Shown here in pieces: positions 9,125 to 50,740 of a stretch of DNA of 64,000 nt. Source of the DNA: an uncultured Chthonomonadaceae bacterium. Lineage in GTDB: Bacteria; Armatimonadota; Chthonomonadetes; Chthonomonadales; Chthonomonadaceae. Every line of letters begins with the position of its first letter. Positions within the stretch are counted from its first letter, which is position 1. The notes below the pieces were generated by a model. That model saw only the letters and a program-made list of their open reading frames with translations, was not told the DNA's origin and ran no database searches. The stretch lies in contig CAWIEK010000016.1 of NCBI GenBank assembly GCA_963835065.1, forward strand, positions 32,001 through 96,000. The letters are read 5' to 3'. Made by a program: the position numbers and the translations under genes.

Positions 9125-9685
9125 ATGTTTCGACCCGAAATTGCGGCGGCAATGGCAGCCTACTTTTTAAGGCAAGCGCCGGAACAGAAACTCACCGATC
9201 TCGCGCTGATGCGGCTGATGGTTCTTTCTGAGCGGGAGTGTATGGCACAAACCACGTCACTTCTCACCGGCAGCGCGTTTGTGAGTACGCCGCATGGCCC
9301 GGTGTTGTCCGAAGTGTTGGATTTAATGACGGGAAGGATCGTTTCTCCCGCGTGGGATCGCTGTATCGGGTATGTCCCTCATGGCGAGTGGGGTACACGC
9401 GCGAATTACTGCTGCCTGCAACAAAACCTTGATGTTGGGGAAACCCTGAGCGAATTCGAGATTGGCCTTCTGGAGTGTGTCTGGAACCGGTTCGGGCAGA
9501 AAAGCAGGTGGGAGATCGCCGATATTCGCCATGAATTTCCAGAATGGGACAGCGCCTGTGCCGAAACACAAACCTCACGTCCGATTTCTATCCAATCCAT
9601 CTTTGAATTAGGGTTGCAGGAAAGCCGGCAAGTAGCCACAGAGCGAACGAGTGAACTAGAATACTTCGAGGCGGTATCCGCGTAA
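9125..9685 (+). CDS. Panacea (DUF4065/SocA-like) antitoxin
   Basis: LMRLMVLSER...LTG..FVSTPHGPVLSEV and HEFPEW motifs. Confidence 0.8.
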   Translation: MFRPEIAAAMAAYFLRQAPEQKLTDLALMRLMVLSERECMAQTTSLLTGSAFVSTPHGPVLSEVLDLMTGRIVSPAWDRCIGYVPHGEWGTRANYCCLQQNLDVGETLSEFEIGLLECVWNRFGQKSRWEIADIRHEFPEWDSACAETQTSRPISIQSIFELGLQESRQVATERTSELEYFEAVSA

Positions 9686-9686
9686 C

Positions 9687-10157
9687 GTGGTGAATACAGG
9701 CGCTAAAAACGGAGTGGCTGAAGGGAATGTCTACAAAATTGACTTGCAAAATGGCAAGCCAGCCCACTACTACATCATCCTGAATGAGCCTCGAATTTTA
9801 GACGGAAAATTTCTGGCGGCTTCCTTTACGGATCGTCACAATTTTCCGTCCAATACCGATGTTTGGCCTCTTGACTATCCTTTATGCCCCACCCTTCTCC
9901 TTGCAAAACCTTCTGTGATTGCTCTGCGTTACGTGGAACTGAGGGATCAGCATTGGCTCAACGCGGATACCGTCGAATTCGTAAGCCGCAGTACGCCTGA
10001 CGCACTTAAGCGAGCAAGGTGTAACATCTTCTGGTTTTCACAGTTTTTGAGAGTAGATGTTCTGAAATTTGCGAGGTTCTACGAAAGCGAATGGAAACCC
10101 ACTTGTGGGGCGGTTCCGCAAGGAACACCGAAACCTATGGAGAACGCTTCTCCCTGA
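9687..10157 (+). CDS. putative toxin partner of the Panacea protein (possibly PemK/MazF-like fold)
   Basis: Starts 1 nt after the Panacea stop; GNVYKI...HYYIILN...FLAASFT beta-strand pattern. Confidence 0.55.
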   Translation: MVNTGAKNGVAEGNVYKIDLQNGKPAHYYIILNEPRILDGKFLAASFTDRHNFPSNTDVWPLDYPLCPTLLLAKPSVIALRYVELRDQHWLNADTVEFVSRSTPDALKRARCNIFWFSQFLRVDVLKFARFYESEWKPTCGAVPQGTPKPMENASP

Positions 10158-10239
10158 GTCCTCTGGCCGAATGGGAGTAGATCACGGACGCGCGGAACCG
10201 GCGCAAGCAAAGGATGAAAAGACAAGGATGAAGGATGAA

Positions 10240-10392
10240 AAAGGAAATATGTAGAGGCAGCGTCGAAATCTTGGCAATACAGCGCTTCCAGCCCGATGTC
10301 TCGTTGTGTCAAGTTGTAGAAGAGAGGCGTCGTGACCTCAACAGCGTCAGGGCGAACGGGAGGGGTGGAGCATGGGCCTGTACCTCCTTTAC
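10240..10392 (-). other. conserved stand-alone element, copy 2 (UGA-containing small ORF or ncRNA)
   Basis: 9 differences in 127 nt from the copy at 35254-35380; AAAGGAGGT then ATG at 10373; in-frame TGA at 10347-10349 and 10338-10340. Confidence 0.75.
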
Positions 10393-10574
10393 TGTATAGT
10401 GGACGCATGTATTCTATAGACAGGGCATGTGGGGCAAAAGGTTCGCTTTTTTCGCGTTGTTTGGCTCTTTTTTCTGTCTTTTGTCTCTGTTTGCGGGATC
10501 GTTGCAAATCGGAGGAGGCTAATACATTCATTCGCCTAAATTATTGGGGTAGATCAGAGTTGACCATCGAAGAG

Positions 10575-15564: not shown

Positions 15565-25702
<10,138 letters not shown>

Positions 25703-27997: not shown

Positions 27998-28152
27998 ATT
28001 TTTGCCTCTTCCAACACGCTTTACAGTTGCCGTCTTTTCGCCACACGTGAGGTTCATTCCTCCCCCGCATGAAGGAAAAAGGAAAAGGAGCGAGAGTTGC
28101 CAAAGATTATGCAGGAATTAACCGACGGCTTCTACAACATGTTGTTGCGGCT

Positions 28153-30560
28153 ATGCTGTGTCCCGTAAATGTAACAGGAGTATTCTATTTGACAGCGATT
28201 GTCCCCCTCATAGTGTGCGGCGTGGCGTTCCTCGCGGCAGCCTCTTTCCCGGCGGGTGACGCGGTGGATTCGCGCGGCCCTATCGTCACGCCCGGTATGC
28301 AGCCCGTTGTGAGCGCATCCGGCGTACAGGCTCCGGGTTATACCTTTGTCAATGACTGCCGCAAGCCAACGCCGTGGAAGGCGCTTTGGATCGGGCCGGA
28401 TGCCGGGGCGTCTGCGGCTGTGTGCTTGTTCCGCAAGGAAGCGGTGTTTGACGCTGCGCCGACAAAGGTGACAGCATGGCTTTCGGCAGACTGCAAGTAT
28501 CGGCTGTATATCAACGGGCGGCTGGTTTCGCGCGGACCCGTAGATATGGGACGCGATTATGCGGGCGGCTCCACAGGCCGTTGGTTTTATGATTGCCGCG
28601 ACCTGACGCCGTTCTTCCACAAAGGCGTCAACGTGATCGCCGCCGAAGTCTTCCGCGCGTGGCCGATTGGATTTACCGTTTCGCGGGGACAATCCGGTTT
28701 TTTATTCGAGGCGCAAGCCACGCTTCCCGGCAGGAAGCAGCAGACGGTTGCCTCCGATACGAGTTGGCGCTGCCTGCCCGCCCCGCAGTACCCCGATCCT
28801 TCCACCTATGACTCTGCACGGGAGCCGACCGGATGGCGGATGGCAGGCTATAACGATTCCGCCTGGCCGATGTGCCGCGCGGTTAAAGATGTATGGGAGC
28901 CGCTGACTGCCAAGCGAAATACCGTCCCTGATGGAAGCGCGGTATCCGGTTCTGCGCGTGGAGGGATTGCCGGACAGGACAATTAGCGCCGACACCCATT
29001 TTCGCGTTGTTTTTGACCGCGTACTCAGCGCGTATCCCACGCTCAAAATTCGGGGCGGCAAAGGCGCGGTGATTACCATACGGGCGACCCAATCGGCGAC
29101 CTTTCTTTCCGGCGGGGGCGAACAGGAATTTGAATTCCCTTATATGACCGAGATCGCTCCGGCCTACACCGTCGAGATCAAGCATGTCACCACGCCGCTT
29201 GAGATCGTGGATGTTGGGGCGAATTTCACCTCGCAGCCCGTCGCGTATCGGGGCGCGTTTGAATGTAGTGATCCGCAGTTGAACCGTATCTGGGACGTGT
29301 CGCGGTGGGCGGTGCAAATATGCCTGCAAACGCACCATCTGGATTCGCCCAACCATCAGGAGCCTATCAGCGACCCCGGCGATTACCTGATTGAAGCGAT
29401 GGTGAACCATTACGCTTTCGCGCAGCCCTGGCTCACGCGGCAGGATATTCGCAAGTTCGCCTGGCTGCTCAAAGACGAAAAGTACCACAACTTCCACACC
29501 AGCTATTCTATTGGCTGGCTGCAGATGCTGATGGACTACTACGATTACACGGGCGACAAAGCGCTTGTGATCGAAATGGCTCCTTACGTTCATGAACTGC
29601 TCGACACCTACGCCACCTGGCGCGGCAAAAACGGCATTATTTCCGAAGCGCCGAATTATATGTTTATGGATTGGGTGACTATCGGCGGGTTTGAGTGCCA
29701 TCATCCCCCCGCTGTAATCGGGCAGGGCTATCTCACAGCCTACTACTATCATGGGCTGGACATGGCAGCCGCGCGTGGCCGCGTTGATGGACGACACAGC
29801 GCGCGTCCAACACTACGCGCTTTTGCGCTCCGAGATTAAGGCAGCGTTCAATCGGGAACTGTGGGCCGGGGAAAAGGGTCTGTACCGGGATGGCAAGCCG
29901 TTCCAGACTTCGGTAAAGCCGCACCAGTGGCTGCCCGCCGACAAAGACATTGAGACGTTCAGCCCCCATGTCAACCTGCTGGCCGTGCTGTACGATCTTG
30001 CGCCCAAAGAACAGCAGAAGGCGATTGTGGAAAAGGTAATGGCCGAGAAGCCGCTTAACACGCAGCCCTGGTTCATGCACTGGGTTTTTCAGGCGATTGA
30101 CCACGCGCGGCTATTCGATCAGTATGGTACGCCGCAGATGCGCCGCTGGAACATCGTTGCGCCAACGCAGTCTTTCCACGAGATGTGGACGGGAGGCGAT
30201 CTGAGTCATGGCTGGTGTTCCACGCCGCTCGTTCAGATGTCGTCTCGCGTGCTTGGCGTGACACCCGCCTCGCCGGGTTTCAAAACAATCGCTATTCACC
30301 CACAGCTTTGTGATTTGACGTGGGCTAAGGGCCGCGTACCCACGCCGCATGGCGATGTTGCCGTCTCGTGGACGCGGGAAGCCGGTAAATTCACGCTGGA
30401 AATCCACGTGCCGACCGGCAGCGCGGCGGATGTTACCCTGCCTGTTCTGCCGTTTGCGCAGCCAACATTGCGCGTGGACGGCCACGCGGCGACAGGAACG
30501 ATGCGCGTAGGCGCGGGAAACCATCATTTTGAAGTGCGCGACAAGTCAACGAAGATTTAA
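28153..30560 (+). CDS. alpha-L-rhamnosidase-like glycoside hydrolase (GH78), two frameshifts (~28.92 and ~29.77 kb)
   Basis: LSADCKYRLYING, FECSDPQLNRIW, DLSHGWCSTP, GRVPTPHGDV across three consecutive ORFs. Confidence 0.85.
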
Positions 30561-35035: not shown

Positions 35036-35233
35036 ATACTTCCGATGGTGGATCAATCCTGCCCCCTCTTGAAAATGCCTCTTTTGTCCTGAAATAAAAA
35101 GTGCTGTATCACGCGAAAAAATGAACCCTTTGCTCCCCACAGCCGTCTAAACAGTAGAACAACGTCTGCTATACAAACAAGAAGGCTGAACGTTGCTAGT
35201 TCCTATCAACTATCAACTATCAACTATCAACTG

Positions 35234-35390
35234 AGAAGGGAGGTGCAAAGCCTATGTTTCACCCCTCCCGCTCGCCCTGACGCTGCTGAGGCCACGACGC
35301 CTCTCTCCTACAACTTGACACAACGAGACATCGGGCTGGAAGCGCTGCATTGCCAAGATTTCGACGATGACTCTACATATCCTTTTTTCT
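35234..35390 (+). other. conserved stand-alone element, copy 1 (UGA-containing small ORF or ncRNA)
   Basis: GAAGGGAGGT then ATG at 35254; in-frame TGA at 35278, 35287 and 35368; homologous to 10240-10392. Confidence 0.75.
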
Positions 35391-44924: not shown

Positions 44925-45914
44925 TCACAAACCTACTTCGGATGCGGCGTTTTCGCGGAACAGCGAGCCTTCGCGGATGTAGCGGCGTACCATGTTGACA
45001 TTCGCGTGTCCTGTCTGCTGCATGATGGCGCGTTCCGAAACGCCCGCCTGCGCCGCGCTGGTTGCCAGTCCCGCCCGCAGACTGTGGCCGGCATATTGCG
45101 CCGCGTCCAAGCCTGCCGCCCGCGCCGTCTTTTGTACAATCAGCGCAACCGAGCGGTCCGACAGGGCGCGGGGCAGGATATGGCCGTGCTTGTTGATGGG
45201 GCGAAACAAGGGCCCGGCCTCGATGTTCGCCACATTCAGCCAGGCTTGCAGGGAACGCACGGGGCAGGTATGCGGCTTGGAGCCATACGGTATCCCGATC
45301 TTGCGCCCCTGCCCCTCCTGATCGGTCTTGCTCCGCCGCAGCGTGACGGTAATGCCTTCGGTTGCAATAATAATATCTGAGCGCGTCAGGCTGACAAGTT
45401 CGGAGCGGCGAAACGCGCCCGCGAAGCCGAGCAGCAGCAGGGCGCGATCCCGGATTCCCGTCGGCGTGGGCGGCAGGGTGTCCACCATGCGGCGAATGTC
45501 GGCGGTGAGCGTGGGCGCTTTGCCTTCATACGCGGTTCCCTTGACGCGCCGGATGCCCGCCCACGTCGCCCGCACAATGGCTTCCTGTGTCGGCGTCGCG
45601 TGTCCCGCTGCCTGATGCGCCTGCGAAATAGAACTTAATCGCCGCTGCAAGGTGCTGCATTTGTGGGTATCGGCCAGCATGGTCAAGTACAGCGCGACGG
45701 TTTCCGGCGCGGCGGGTAAGGGAACAAGATCGTGCTGCGCGCACCAGGCGGTAAAATGGTTCCAATCTGCCCGGTAGCCGCGCAGGGTATTGGCCGCCCG
45801 CGCCTGCTCCACATACGCCCGCGCCTGCTTCCCCGCCTGCTTGAGTTCTTCCGAAATGGCAGGCAGGTGGTTTTCCGCTTCAACAACTTCAACAATGGTA
45901 ATTTCCGTACTCAT
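44925..45914 (-). CDS. tyrosine recombinase (site-specific integrase/resolvase)
   Basis: NTLRGYRADW, RDRALLLLGFAGAFRRSEL, RSKTDQEG, GHSLRAG, TGH...RY. Confidence 0.95.
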   Translation of the reverse strand: MSTEITIVEVVEAENHLPAISEELKQAGKQARAYVEQARAANTLRGYRADWNHFTAWCAQHDLVPLPAAPETVALYLTMLADTHKCSTLQRRLSSISQAHQAAGHATPTQEAIVRATWAGIRRVKGTAYEGKAPTLTADIRRMVDTLPPTPTGIRDRALLLLGFAGAFRRSELVSLTRSDIIIATEGITVTLRRSKTDQEGQGRKIGIPYGSKPHTCPVRSLQAWLNVANIEAGPLFRPINKHGHILPRALSDRSVALIVQKTARAAGLDAAQYAGHSLRAGLATSAAQAGVSERAIMQQTGHANVNMVRRYIREGSLFRENAASEVGL

Positions 45915-48720: not shown

Positions 48721-49782
48721 TTACGCTTTCATCTCCACGACTTTCGCTTGTTCTATGGCGTCGGCGAGTACGGATTTTTCCTCTTCCGTCAGCGTGTTGG
48801 ATACCAGAGCCTCTACGATCCAGCGCACTTCCGGGCGAAGCTGCGGGGATTGCGAGAAGGTGACGGAGGTGGATTGACGTGGGCGCGTGGTGCGCAGTCG
48901 CTCGCCTTTTGGCGCGGAAAAGGGATGCGGGCGCTCTTCGGCTACGGACAAATCCGTATTCGCGCCCAACGCCTGCCTTGCCAGCAAATGCTGTCGCACC
49001 TGTGACACGGACAGGCCGTAGCTTCCCGTGCGGCGCTCACTGGGGCGAGCGGCCTGCTCCGCAAGCGTGAGCAGTTCCTCCTTTTGCAGCAGGCCCTGCG
49101 CGCGCTGGAGCATGATGCCGTGACTGCCGGACAAGCGCCCCGCTTCGATCAGATCGGCAATGGACTCCGGCAGTTCGGCCAGATGGAACAGGTCGTGGAT
49201 GCGCGAGCGGCCCAGGCCCACTTCCGAGGCAATGTCTTCCCACGTCGTTTTCGGGTTTTGGGATTTACGCAGTTCGTACAGGCGGCGCAGGGCGCGGCCT
49301 TTTTCGATGTCGGTCAGTTCCGCGCGCAGCACGTTTTCGGCAAGCTGCGCGGCCTGCACTTCATCATCCGTGAGGGCGCGAATACGAGCGGGAATCCGCA
49401 CTTTGCCCGCAAGCCGCGCGGCCCGCCAGCGCCGCTCCCCTGCTACCAGCCGGTACGCTTCGCCGGGCTGAATGGGCGGGCGCACCAGAATGGGCTGCAG
49501 TACGCCGCGCCGGGCAATGTCATCGGCAAGCGCCTGCAAATCGGACGTGTCGAAGTGGCGGCGAGGCTGCGCGGGATCGGGCATGATTTCGTCGAGCAAT
49601 AGGTCGCGGGCATCGGTTGCCACGCCCGCATGCGCAAGGTCGCCCTCGTTGAGCAGATTGGCCGCAGCCGCAACCGTTTGCGACATTCCTTCCCGGCTGC
49701 GGGTTCTCGCCCGCGTCGCAGTGGTGGCCGGGGCGCGCTCCGGCGTGGCGGGCGCGTTAGTTTCCGCAGATTTCGGTAACAC
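48721..49782 (-). CDS. parB: ParB/RepB/Spo0J partition protein
   Basis: QPRRHF, GVLQPILVRP, LVAGERRWRAA, LAENVLRAEL; GTG start after GAGGAGG overlaps the parA end. Confidence 0.93.
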   Translation of the reverse strand: MLPKSAETNAPATPERAPATTATRARTRSREGMSQTVAAAANLLNEGDLAHAGVATDARDLLLDEIMPDPAQPRRHFDTSDLQALADDIARRGVLQPILVRPPIQPGEAYRLVAGERRWRAARLAGKVRIPARIRALTDDEVQAAQLAENVLRAELTDIEKGRALRRLYELRKSQNPKTTWEDIASEVGLGRSRIHDLFHLAELPESIADLIEAGRLSGSHGIMLQRAQGLLQKEELLTLAEQAARPSERRTGSYGLSVSQVRQHLLARQALGANTDLSVAEERPHPFSAPKGERLRTTRPRQSTSVTFSQSPQLRPEVRWIVEALVSNTLTEEEKSVLADAIEQAKVVEMKA

Positions 49783-50740
49783 TGTGTACCACCTCCTCGG
49801 CAAGCGCATAAAAGTGTTCGGCTTCCGGCAGGCCGGAAAACACGACCGGGTGACGCGCAGCGGTAGACCCGTCCACAGCCGTGCGTTCGGGAATAATCGT
49901 CTGGAACATGCGCCGCCCGAAAATCGAAGTGGTCATTTCGATAATCGCGCTGGCGTTGGCGGTTGTTAATCGCTGCCGGTTGAGGACGCCACCCAAAACG
50001 TGGATCGGATGCCGCGACAGTTCCGCGCAGCCCTTGCGGGTGTTGAGCAATTGCCGGACGCCTTCGAGGGAAAACGCGCCGTCTATGGGAATTAGAATCG
50101 CATCCGAAGCCACCATCGCGTTGATGGACAGCAGGCCGAGCGAGGGCGGCGCGTCAATCAGCACAAAGTCAAATTCGCTGCGCATAGATTCGAGCGCCTT
50201 ATCCAGTTTCATTTCCCGGCCAAGCGCGTTGTGCAGCATCATTTCCGCGGCGGCTAAATTCAGGTGGGAGGGCGCAAGGCGCAGGTTGGGATGGTATGTC
50301 ACCGTCCGCACCACCTCGGCAAGCGCGCGGGTCGGGCCTGTCGCTTCGTAGCCGATCACGTCCGCAATGGAACTTTCCACGTCGTTCCACAGCACGTCCA
50401 GCCCGAAGGAGCAGTTGGCCTGCGGGTCGAAGTCCACGATCAACACGCGATATCCGTTCATGGCAAGCGCGCCGGCAAGGTTGATGGTGATGGTGGTTTT
50501 GCCCACGCCCCCCTTCTGGTTTACGAGGGCGATAGTCGTGGTTCCCTTGCGCTTTTTCCCGCCCAGCATTTCGCGGATGCGGTCTATGTCCTCCTGCGTG
50601 TACAGGCGGCGATTTCCGGCGCGACGCGATGCCCCGCCGTCGCCGCGTCGTTCCAGTCGCCGCAGCGTGTCGGGCGTCACGCCCAGAACGTCGGCGGCTT
50701 GCGTGACCGTAAGATTTTCTACCGGACGGCGTAGTGTCAT
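49757..50740 (-). CDS. parA: ParA ATPase with N-terminal MerR-type HTH
   Basis: LTVTQAADVLGVTPDTLRRLE; NQKGGVGKTT; DFDPQAN; IDAPPSLG. Confidence 0.95.
   Translation of the reverse strand: MTLRRPVENLTVTQAADVLGVTPDTLRRLERRGDGGASRRAGNRRLYTQEDIDRIREMLGGKKRKGTTTIALVNQKGGVGKTTITINLAGALAMNGYRVLIVDFDPQANCSFGLDVLWNDVESSIADVIGYEATGPTRALAEVVRTVTYHPNLRLAPSHLNLAAAEMMLHNALGREMKLDKALESMRSEFDFVLIDAPPSLGLLSINAMVASDAILIPIDGAFSLEGVRQLLNTRKGCAELSRHPIHVLGGVLNRQRLTTANASAIIEMTTSIFGRRMFQTIIPERTAVDGSTAARHPVVFSGLPEAEHFYALAEEVVHSVTEICGN

Follow-up and report, generated by a model that had tools for sequence, protein, structure and literature searches.

The element described here is an undescribed, genus-limited, high-copy and evenly spaced unit, read here as a putative minigene RNA. 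Two copies lie in the window, the 64,000-nucleotide stretch that we analysed (host genome G000, C16:32001-96000; the assembly is 8.0 Mb long with 57% GC). On the minus strand, the ATG frame of the first copy reads MLHPSRSP-stop-RC-stop followed by GHDASLLQLDTTRHRAGSAVLPRFRRCLYI, with both stops being TGA and the ATG lying 8 nt past a Shine-Dalgarno sequence (SD), just as an earlier sequence-only reading of this DNA had reported. That reading also gave 9 changes in 127 nt relative to the plus-strand copy at 35254, which we recovered at positions 4, 6, 18, 33, 39, 54, 95, 114 and 117. Its view of a duplicated element was right about the duplication and too narrow about the extent, as these are two copies of 162, and the promoter motif upstream was missed. 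The 162 copies in G000 were found by blastn at E<1e-5, and nhmmer returned the identical 162; since so many copies pass this threshold, the resemblance between the two in the window is far beyond chance. The parts of both window copies are listed in Table 1.

Table 1. Parts of the two copies in the window (window coordinates), and loci in related genomes with a different upstream motif
Feature	Position	Strand	Remarks
-35-like box GAACCTTT of ECF-sigma-type motif	10437..10444	-	A-rich tract to ~10482 precedes
-10-like box TGTCTAT	10416..10422	-	0 private substitutions/98 site-copies in MITE subfamily; spacer varies
Second GTCTA-like box, here variant GTCCAC	10399..10405	-	17-20 nt downstream of -10; candidate operator or pause element
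Shine-Dalgarno AAAGGAGGT, first window copy	10390-10382	-	GGAGG nearly invariant across 162 copies; complementary to G000 16S 3' end
Mini-ORF MLHPSRSP-stop (TGA then C), first window copy	10347..10373; ATG 10373, TGA 10349-10347	-	8 nt SD-to-ATG
Hairpin P1, 5 bp, 6-nt loop	10324..10339	-	begins 7 nt past stop codon
Long interrupted stem P2/P3	10248..10302	-	invariant 15-nt apical segment 10286-10272, ending in CTACATA
Pyrimidine/U-rich tail, then TTCATCC heptamer repeats	10212..10247	-	non-canonical as intrinsic terminator
Second window copy, whole	35123..35390	+	core to 35379
Second window copy, promoter boxes	-35 35123-35130; -10 35144-35150; second box 35163-35169	+	
Second window copy, leader	CTATCAA repeats 35203-35230; SD 35235-35244	+	
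Second window copy, ORF and hairpin	MFHPSRSP-stop 35254-35280; P1 35288-35303	+	
Copies with alternative upstream motif	G002: L066, L068, L282, L283, L285; G001: L119, L122, L125, L128, L137		

With 50 diverse copies as its basis, a covariance model matched 47 loci in G002 (one of them a 3' fragment) and 13 in G001, both of which belong to the same genus as G000. When the best candidates per genome were scored, the model had no match in 39 other genomes of the family Chthonomonadaceae or in 150 sampled genomes of the phylum, and a DNA search of 58 genomes outside the genus was likewise negative. Pattern matches outside the family (9 genome loci, 15 metagenome loci and viral-contig loci, 80 of 120 of which were scored) cover only the 15-20-nt loop at no more than 17 bits and are loop-sized chance matches; the SD-ORF pattern occurred elsewhere as single matches only, in 4 other genomes, and the element was absent from the phage and plasmid collections searched. 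No Rfam family matches the element: Rfam 15 gave no match in the window at the gathering threshold (best local E 4.9), and nothing relevant at 9 relative loci. The literature we searched gave no account of it; supplementary catalogues of RNA motifs or MITEs (e.g., that of PMC11602168) could include one. Relatives of the element are present at a small share in two soil RNA runs and three runs of unrecorded kind, and the contigs from the two soil RNA runs, which have low depth and reach only from the SD to the core, are unable to show transcription. An RNA contig and a contig from a run of unrecorded kind share their start point in the leader, neither having a loose end there, and another run extends upstream; since graph branch points give the same picture, we did not count this shared start as evidence.

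The start-to-stop frame of the mini-ORF is kept in 157/162 G000 copies (27 nt in 115, 30 nt in 42) and, with non-ATG starts allowed, in 44/45 G002 and 12/13 G001 copies, with products of 8-16 aa. All five out-of-frame mini-ORFs result from one-base changes, four within C/T runs, and past the stop the frame is broken in 37/162 copies. The N-terminal residues vary, while the last three codons of the 162 G000 copies encode Arg (151), His (6) or Leu (5), then Ser (119), Pro (38) or Ala (5), and finally Pro in all 162. Across the genus, each of the four Pro codons and each of the three stops (TAA, TGA and TAG) is in use, a pattern that points to translation of the mini-ORF, and since only the last three residues are constrained, the peptide itself is probably a by-product. 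In 122/162 copies, the ORF contains a CCUCCC-like stretch able to pair with the SD, and this pairing could be an RNA-level constraint that mimics part of the codon pattern.

The base after the stop is C, a weak-terminator context, in 148/162 G000, 37/45 G002 and 10/13 G001 copies. A C-terminal Pro is known to slow termination, reportedly shown by Hayes 2002 and Sunohara 2002 (both cited in PMC11890864), whose titles concern C-terminal Pro and SsrA tagging. The R-[S/A/P]-P end of the mini-ORF corresponds to the initial RxP of the RxPP stallers, where x can be S, A, G or P (PMC7897499). Arrest by ApdA and ApdP requires a Pro codon in the A site together with upstream residues (PMC7897499), whereas in the element R-x-P, present in 151/162 copies, is followed by a stop instead of Pro; a stall at R-x-P-stop is therefore only putative. 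Small ORFs that arrest at their own stop do exist (PMC11890864).

Beyond the stop, P1 follows after a spacer of exactly 7 nt in 157/162 G000, 42/45 G002 and 13/13 G001 copies, and after P1 come an A/C-rich linker and an interrupted stem topped by 15 invariant nucleotides. For P1, 99.2% of alignment cells are paired, and an A-U to U-A change in 5/50 sequences, falling in the G001 subfamily, is compensatory. For P2, four pairs are changed on both sides, with only 83% of cells paired. A 22-pair model, which was derived from the same sequences it was scored on, pairs 88.3% of cells, a level reached by 0/500 shuffles and set against 43-52% in slid controls, and its five pairs that change on both sides are not above shuffles (145/500). 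RNAalifold predicted P2 from the 161 G000 copies, but only P1 and two loop pairs, without P2, from the diverse set. The folding energy of the core equals that of shuffles (z of about -0.1 over 21 copies and +1.1 for the first window copy). The predicted RNA structure is thus modest, as are the covariations on which its pairings rest. One of the two proposals in the sequence-only reading, an unnamed RNA with an 8-codon ORF, gains support from the Rfam searches, yet this RNA folds no better than shuffles. Complementarity to rRNA, tRNA and tmRNA was of chance length (8-9 nt Watson-Crick). A 9-nt match to tRNA D/anticodon stems was likewise at chance level, and we rejected an antisense role towards these RNAs. 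Since none of them offers a convincing complement, the invariant loop more likely has a protein or a tertiary partner.

Upstream of the SD, two boxes that resemble a promoter, AACC and GTCTA, lie about 17 nt apart around a free spacer. Its loose form precedes 140/162 copies, and the strict form (AACC-N-GTCTA) occurs 104 times in G000, with 101 of these upstream of a copy; matches to a promoter PWM number 145 near a copy and 33 elsewhere, which makes the motif almost specific to the element. A double-box pattern, with a second GTCTAC about 19 nt on, was found 101 times in G000, 4 times in G002, 3 times in G001 and not at all in 65 other genomes of the order. The boxes resemble ECF-sigma promoters, a putative assignment. 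G000 has 57 sigma70-r2 matches, of which 6 lie within 2.5 kb of a copy where 5.8 are expected, showing no enrichment, and no cognate sigma was found. Scans of the element for a sigma-70 promoter and an intrinsic terminator found neither. C. calidirosea has been described as ECF-rich (PMC4959169). Ten copies in G002 and G001 (Table 1) carry an alternative upstream motif class in place of the ECF-like boxes, with CTTCTAAA, about 14 nt and then ATATA; in the G001 copies, a GC-rich hairpin leader comes next, followed by 15-codon ORFs with non-ATG starts. Since these subfamilies combine the core with a different upstream motif, promoter and core are modular. Separately, a promoter double box at G000 C54:109077 (+) has no core following it, and in a MITE copy at C19:86604 (+), an inserted repeat parts promoter from core.

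One subfamily of about 460 bp, taken as an ISAs1-derived MITE, is bounded by 19-bp terminal inverted repeats (TIRs) and 10-bp target duplications, which match at 9-10 of 10 positions in 7/14 cases. Exactly the same 19-bp sequence ends the ISAs1-family (PF13808) elements of G002, a genome with 4 PF13808 matches; G000 and G001 have none, and a tblastn search of G000 (92% complete) with the G002 ISAs1 protein returned nothing. Both transposon ends are present in 14 of the 162 copies, the left in 23 and the right in 20, with neither window copy having one; copies without these ends are probably older insertions that gene conversion has homogenised. Among the 14 MITE copies, private substitutions amount to 71/1776 in the shell, 44/1427 in the leader, 2/993 in the RNA core, 0/98 in the -10 box and 1/140 in the SD. 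The non-coding 3' core is under stronger constraint than the flanks. At one site shared by G000 and G002, each species carries its own core variant and its own promoter, and the own-species variant suggests gene conversion among copies, which may add to the low private substitution rate. Such conversion among the 162 copies could erase private core changes without selection, but it does not account for the single-base patterns common to three species. Elsewhere in G000, free ISAs1-type terminal repeats occur away from the element in 10 places, being other MITEs or remnants. Two MITE copies (C11:1889-2356 and C2:238650-239126) share 9-10 bases between the right flank of one and the left flank of the other, as expected from recombination between copies. 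G000 also has four Y1 transposases, which were not linked to the element.

Our preferred reading, to which we give about an even chance, is a standalone minigene small RNA with a ribosome likely paused at x-Pro-stop and the 3' module as its probable working part. We infer transcription, translation, stalling, protection from RNase J and binding by the loop in the following sequence. An alternative-sigma promoter would yield an RNA of about 170-260 nt from each copy, on which a ribosome would load at the SD, read 8-9 codons and pause at x-Pro-stop. The paused ribosome would shield and position the conserved 100-nt 3' module, the probable working part, guarding it against the host 5'-3' exonuclease RNase J, and the invariant loop would bind a protein or the ribosome. 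When the stop occupies the A site, the mRNA entrance would be where P1 lies, which fits the fixed 7-nt spacer. G000 has an RNase J-family gene. In B. subtilis, ribosome-bound 5' ends stabilise RNA (PMC7509114).

A selfish or near-neutral repeat, that is, a MITE cargo kept because its RNA or translation aids its own copying, or kept by gene conversion, is a rather unlikely explanation. It would fit the TIRs shared with the G002 ISAs1 elements, the target duplications, the restriction to one genus, and the own-species core variants with differing promoters at the shared site. On the other hand, only 14/162 copies retain both ends, no ISAs1 transposase is found in G000, and the kept boxes around a free spacer, the synonymous Pro codons, the three stops and the compensatory pairs across three species are unlike conversion tracts.

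We also consider it unlikely that the element is a sink for ribosomes or tRNA-Pro, in which stress-induced minigenes, like lambda bar minigenes or CreT, would collectively sequester ribosomes or let peptidyl-tRNA-Pro accumulate, slowing growth, while the 3' module only stabilises or regulates the message. A strong SD before a short ORF whose last codon is fixed, repeated in very many copies under a single promoter type, would suit such a role, and minigene toxicity depends on the last codon, length and SD strength (PMC8708949, PMC8012679). However, 8-16 codons exceed the toxic range, drop-off being described for fewer than 7 residues (PMC8012679) and two-codon ORFs as the most toxic (PMC8708949). 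In addition, the use of all four Pro codons means that no single tRNA is targeted, conservation is strongest past the stop, and no linked antitoxin gene or RNA accompanies the copies.

The surroundings of the copies bear on whether they act on nearby DNA. A crude ORF caller placed the next downstream ORF on the same strand for 76 copies and on the opposite strand for 85, with none for one, and the neighbouring genes are unrelated among copies, G001 included; in both window copies, the facing gene is convergent with the element. Since downstream genes run either way and neighbours are unrelated, the element is not a cis leader but a standalone unit. A cis-regulatory leader, attenuator or REP2 was accordingly rejected, as the copies share no co-oriented, functionally coherent downstream gene.

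The copies avoid each other along the chromosome. In G000, 1/105 adjacent gaps is shorter than 8 kb, compared with 17.8 +/- 3.7 expected from 2000 intergenic-site simulations, none of which reached the observed value, whereas 12 other repeat families had close pairs at or above expectation or were too few to tell. The only close pair (G000 C30:36857 and 37949) is a 98% identical, degenerate tandem duplicate in which ATT replaces ATG and the promoter motif is absent, and the 22 neighbour pairs closer than 21 kb include both direct and inverted orientations. In G002, 0/36 gaps are shorter than 13.6 kb where 3.5 are expected (p 0.02, with a threshold chosen post hoc), and the spacing at 20 kb is not significant (p 0.22). 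A G000 copy lies beside the orthologous gene for 7/22 evaluable G002 sites compared with 11/111 control gaps (p 0.013), so some insertion sites are old; in this comparison, 17/40 sites were dropped, 16 because orthologues were lacking across a gap >3 kb and one because it had no scored pair, and we also left out one narrow pair. A rearrangement hot spot was rejected, with 7/22 sites syntenic versus 56/111 control gaps (p 0.16).

The minigene-RNA model alone leaves this even spacing unexplained. A cis-acting chromosome element serving its own 20-50 kb, whether as a DNA site, as an insulator or by anchoring a nucleoid protein through the nascent transcript, would account for the mutual avoidance in G000, for the absence of a similar deficit in the other repeat families that were numerous enough, for the G002 gaps and for the shared old sites. 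We nevertheless regard it as distinctly unlikely. Copy number varies 12-fold in the genus (162, 47 and 13), which argues that no fixed density is needed, the G002 spacing loses significance at 20 kb, and the Pro-stop ORF is left unexplained. Transposase target immunity, which is known for Tn3, Tn7 and Mu but is not known for ISAs1, would moreover yield the same spacing without any function. A broader form of the minigene-RNA reading, possible but tentative, is a chromosome-wide RNA gene class of about 160 evenly spaced stress-sigma units. Each unit would park a ribosome at R-x-P-stop and present its loop beyond the mRNA entrance, so that the units would jointly hold ribosomes or organise the nucleoid, each being selected and all having spread by captured ISAs1 ends.

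The other proposal of the sequence-only reading, a multi-selenocysteine micro-protein (U-R-C-U) that would require read-through at codons 9, 12 and 39, is almost certainly wrong. TAA/TAG at codon 9 and frameshifting indels, which that reading had itself named as refuting the selenopeptide, both occur. Codon 9 is TGA in 156 and TAA in 6 G000 copies, TAA in 26 and TGA in 19 of the 45 G002 copies examined (of 47), and TGA in 7, TAA in 5 and TAG in 1 of the G001 copies; it is thus TAA or TAG in 38/220 copies, never Cys, and a true stop. Codon 12 is mostly CGA or GGA, encoding Arg or Gly in 95/162 copies (CGA 70, TGA 61, GGA 25, other 6). Frameshifts past the stop leave the ATG frame in register at codon 39 in 123/162 copies and out of register in 39/162, the P1-P2 linker is 17, 19 or 20 nt rather than 18 in 28/161 (distinct sequences, many not homopolymer slips), and the stop-to-loop distance ranges over 62-70 nt across species without a three-base step. 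Since two long genes of the window are split by frameshifts, assembly errors may explain part of the one-base indels, but the exchange of stops and the cross-species lengths are independent of these. The terminal stop is not common to the copies either, and the bases of codon 39 belong to the 3' strand of P2.

Several observations that had pointed to the selenopeptide were nonetheless correct, and some further ones speak for it. The five synonymous third-position changes (18, 33, 39, 54 and 114, with four past the first TGA) and the TGC/TGA swap at codon 39 (position 117) are real, and the columns of codon 39 (TGC 65, TGA 64, TCT 16, TGT 12, other 5) resemble Cys/Sec/Ser exchange. Summed variation by codon position in the selenopeptide frame is highest at third positions (1.46, 2.13 and 2.92), and a hairpin lies past the first TGA. 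The host does possess the selenocysteine machinery that had been asked after, with tRNA-Sec and selB, although this does not rescue the selenopeptide; selA is present in 4/4 relatives searched, G001 and G002 included, and two of the four are without the element. Coding in the other two frames was rejected, as one has TGA in most copies and the supposedly stop-free one gains TGA in 14/162. Two crude in-frame-TGA scans of the window did not recover the other selenoprotein that had been suggested there, though such scans could miss it.

Compared with known systems, the element is partly like a MITE-borne sRNA, partly like REP2 and partly like an arrest minigene, and it fails one defining test of each. 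MITEs carrying promoters, ORFs or sRNAs include Correia/CREE and Coxiella QMITE1/2 (PMC10969869). Like prokaryotic MITEs, the element is intergenic with many copies, 14 of which have ISAs1 TIRs and target duplications; unlike them, 148/162 copies are without a complete shell, the copies are over-dispersed, the promoter points inward and the cargo is more conserved than the TIRs. With REP2 of Neisseria and Borrelia IR-A (PMC3184786), it shares dispersal, a lack of TIRs, a promoter, RBS, ATG and two stem-loops. REP2, however, is described as ending at the ATG of the downstream gene (PMC3184786), whereas the ORF of the element stops after 8-9 codons. Its stems also sit past the stop, and its downstream genes run either way.

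TnaC, like the element, has a short ORF ending in Pro-stop. Among termination-arrest peptides, we compared the element with TnaC and PepNL (PMC11890864), and among RxPP/RAPP peptides with ApdA, ApdP and ApcA, which likewise have a C-terminal R/H-x-P at the P site (PMC7897499). Unlike these arrest peptides, the element has a stop as its A-site codon, no regulated downstream gene, 162 dispersed copies and a stall that is putative. Lambda bar and the CreT RNA are toxic minigenes. They resemble the element in having a strong SD, a very short ORF, a downstream hairpin and no consequential protein product, and differ from it in that its ORF is longer, all Pro codons are used and a large conserved 3' module is present; no CRISPR or antitoxin link was seen.

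Bacterial small RNA genes are usually present once or a few times, and decay is usually even in repeats of high copy number. In this family, the boxes, RBS, frame, Pro-stop and invariant loop persist through 162 copies, while spacers and transposon ends drift. If functional, the element would count as a domesticated repeat, one in which ribosome pausing is tied to a non-coding RNA on a genome scale. Its natural variants, about 220 in number, could also serve to ask whether R-x-P causes stalling at a stop codon. Among the genomes searched, it is limited to one uncultured genus; its reach is limited accordingly, and tests would be heterologous.

We made several further observations in G000 and the window. 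Heptamer tandem repeats (TATCAAC, TTCATCC and GGGAACA types) and REP-like palindromes are abundant in intergenic regions genome-wide, and both also invade the leader of the element. At C49:430274-432286, an array of 16 tRNA genes fits into 2 kb and includes several whose anticodons are unusual, and a tRNA at C42:1858-1953 was called 'Stop (tta)'. In the window, a SocA/Panacea-domain antitoxin (9125-9685, +) is followed by a 156-aa ORF without a Pfam match (9687-10157, +), which is probably its toxin partner, and this pair converges on the first window copy. A 1521-aa ORF without a Pfam match overlaps a 1913-aa glucoamylase/GH94 ORF at 19961-20130 (together 15565-25702, +), and a frameshift may have divided what is a single very large gene. 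One alpha-L-rhamnosidase extends across three overlapping frames (28069-30560, +; N, 6-hairpin and C domains), as a pseudogene or through assembly indels. Finally, a tyrosine integrase and a MerR-ParA/ParB pair lie on the minus strand at 44925-45914 and 48721-50740, respectively.
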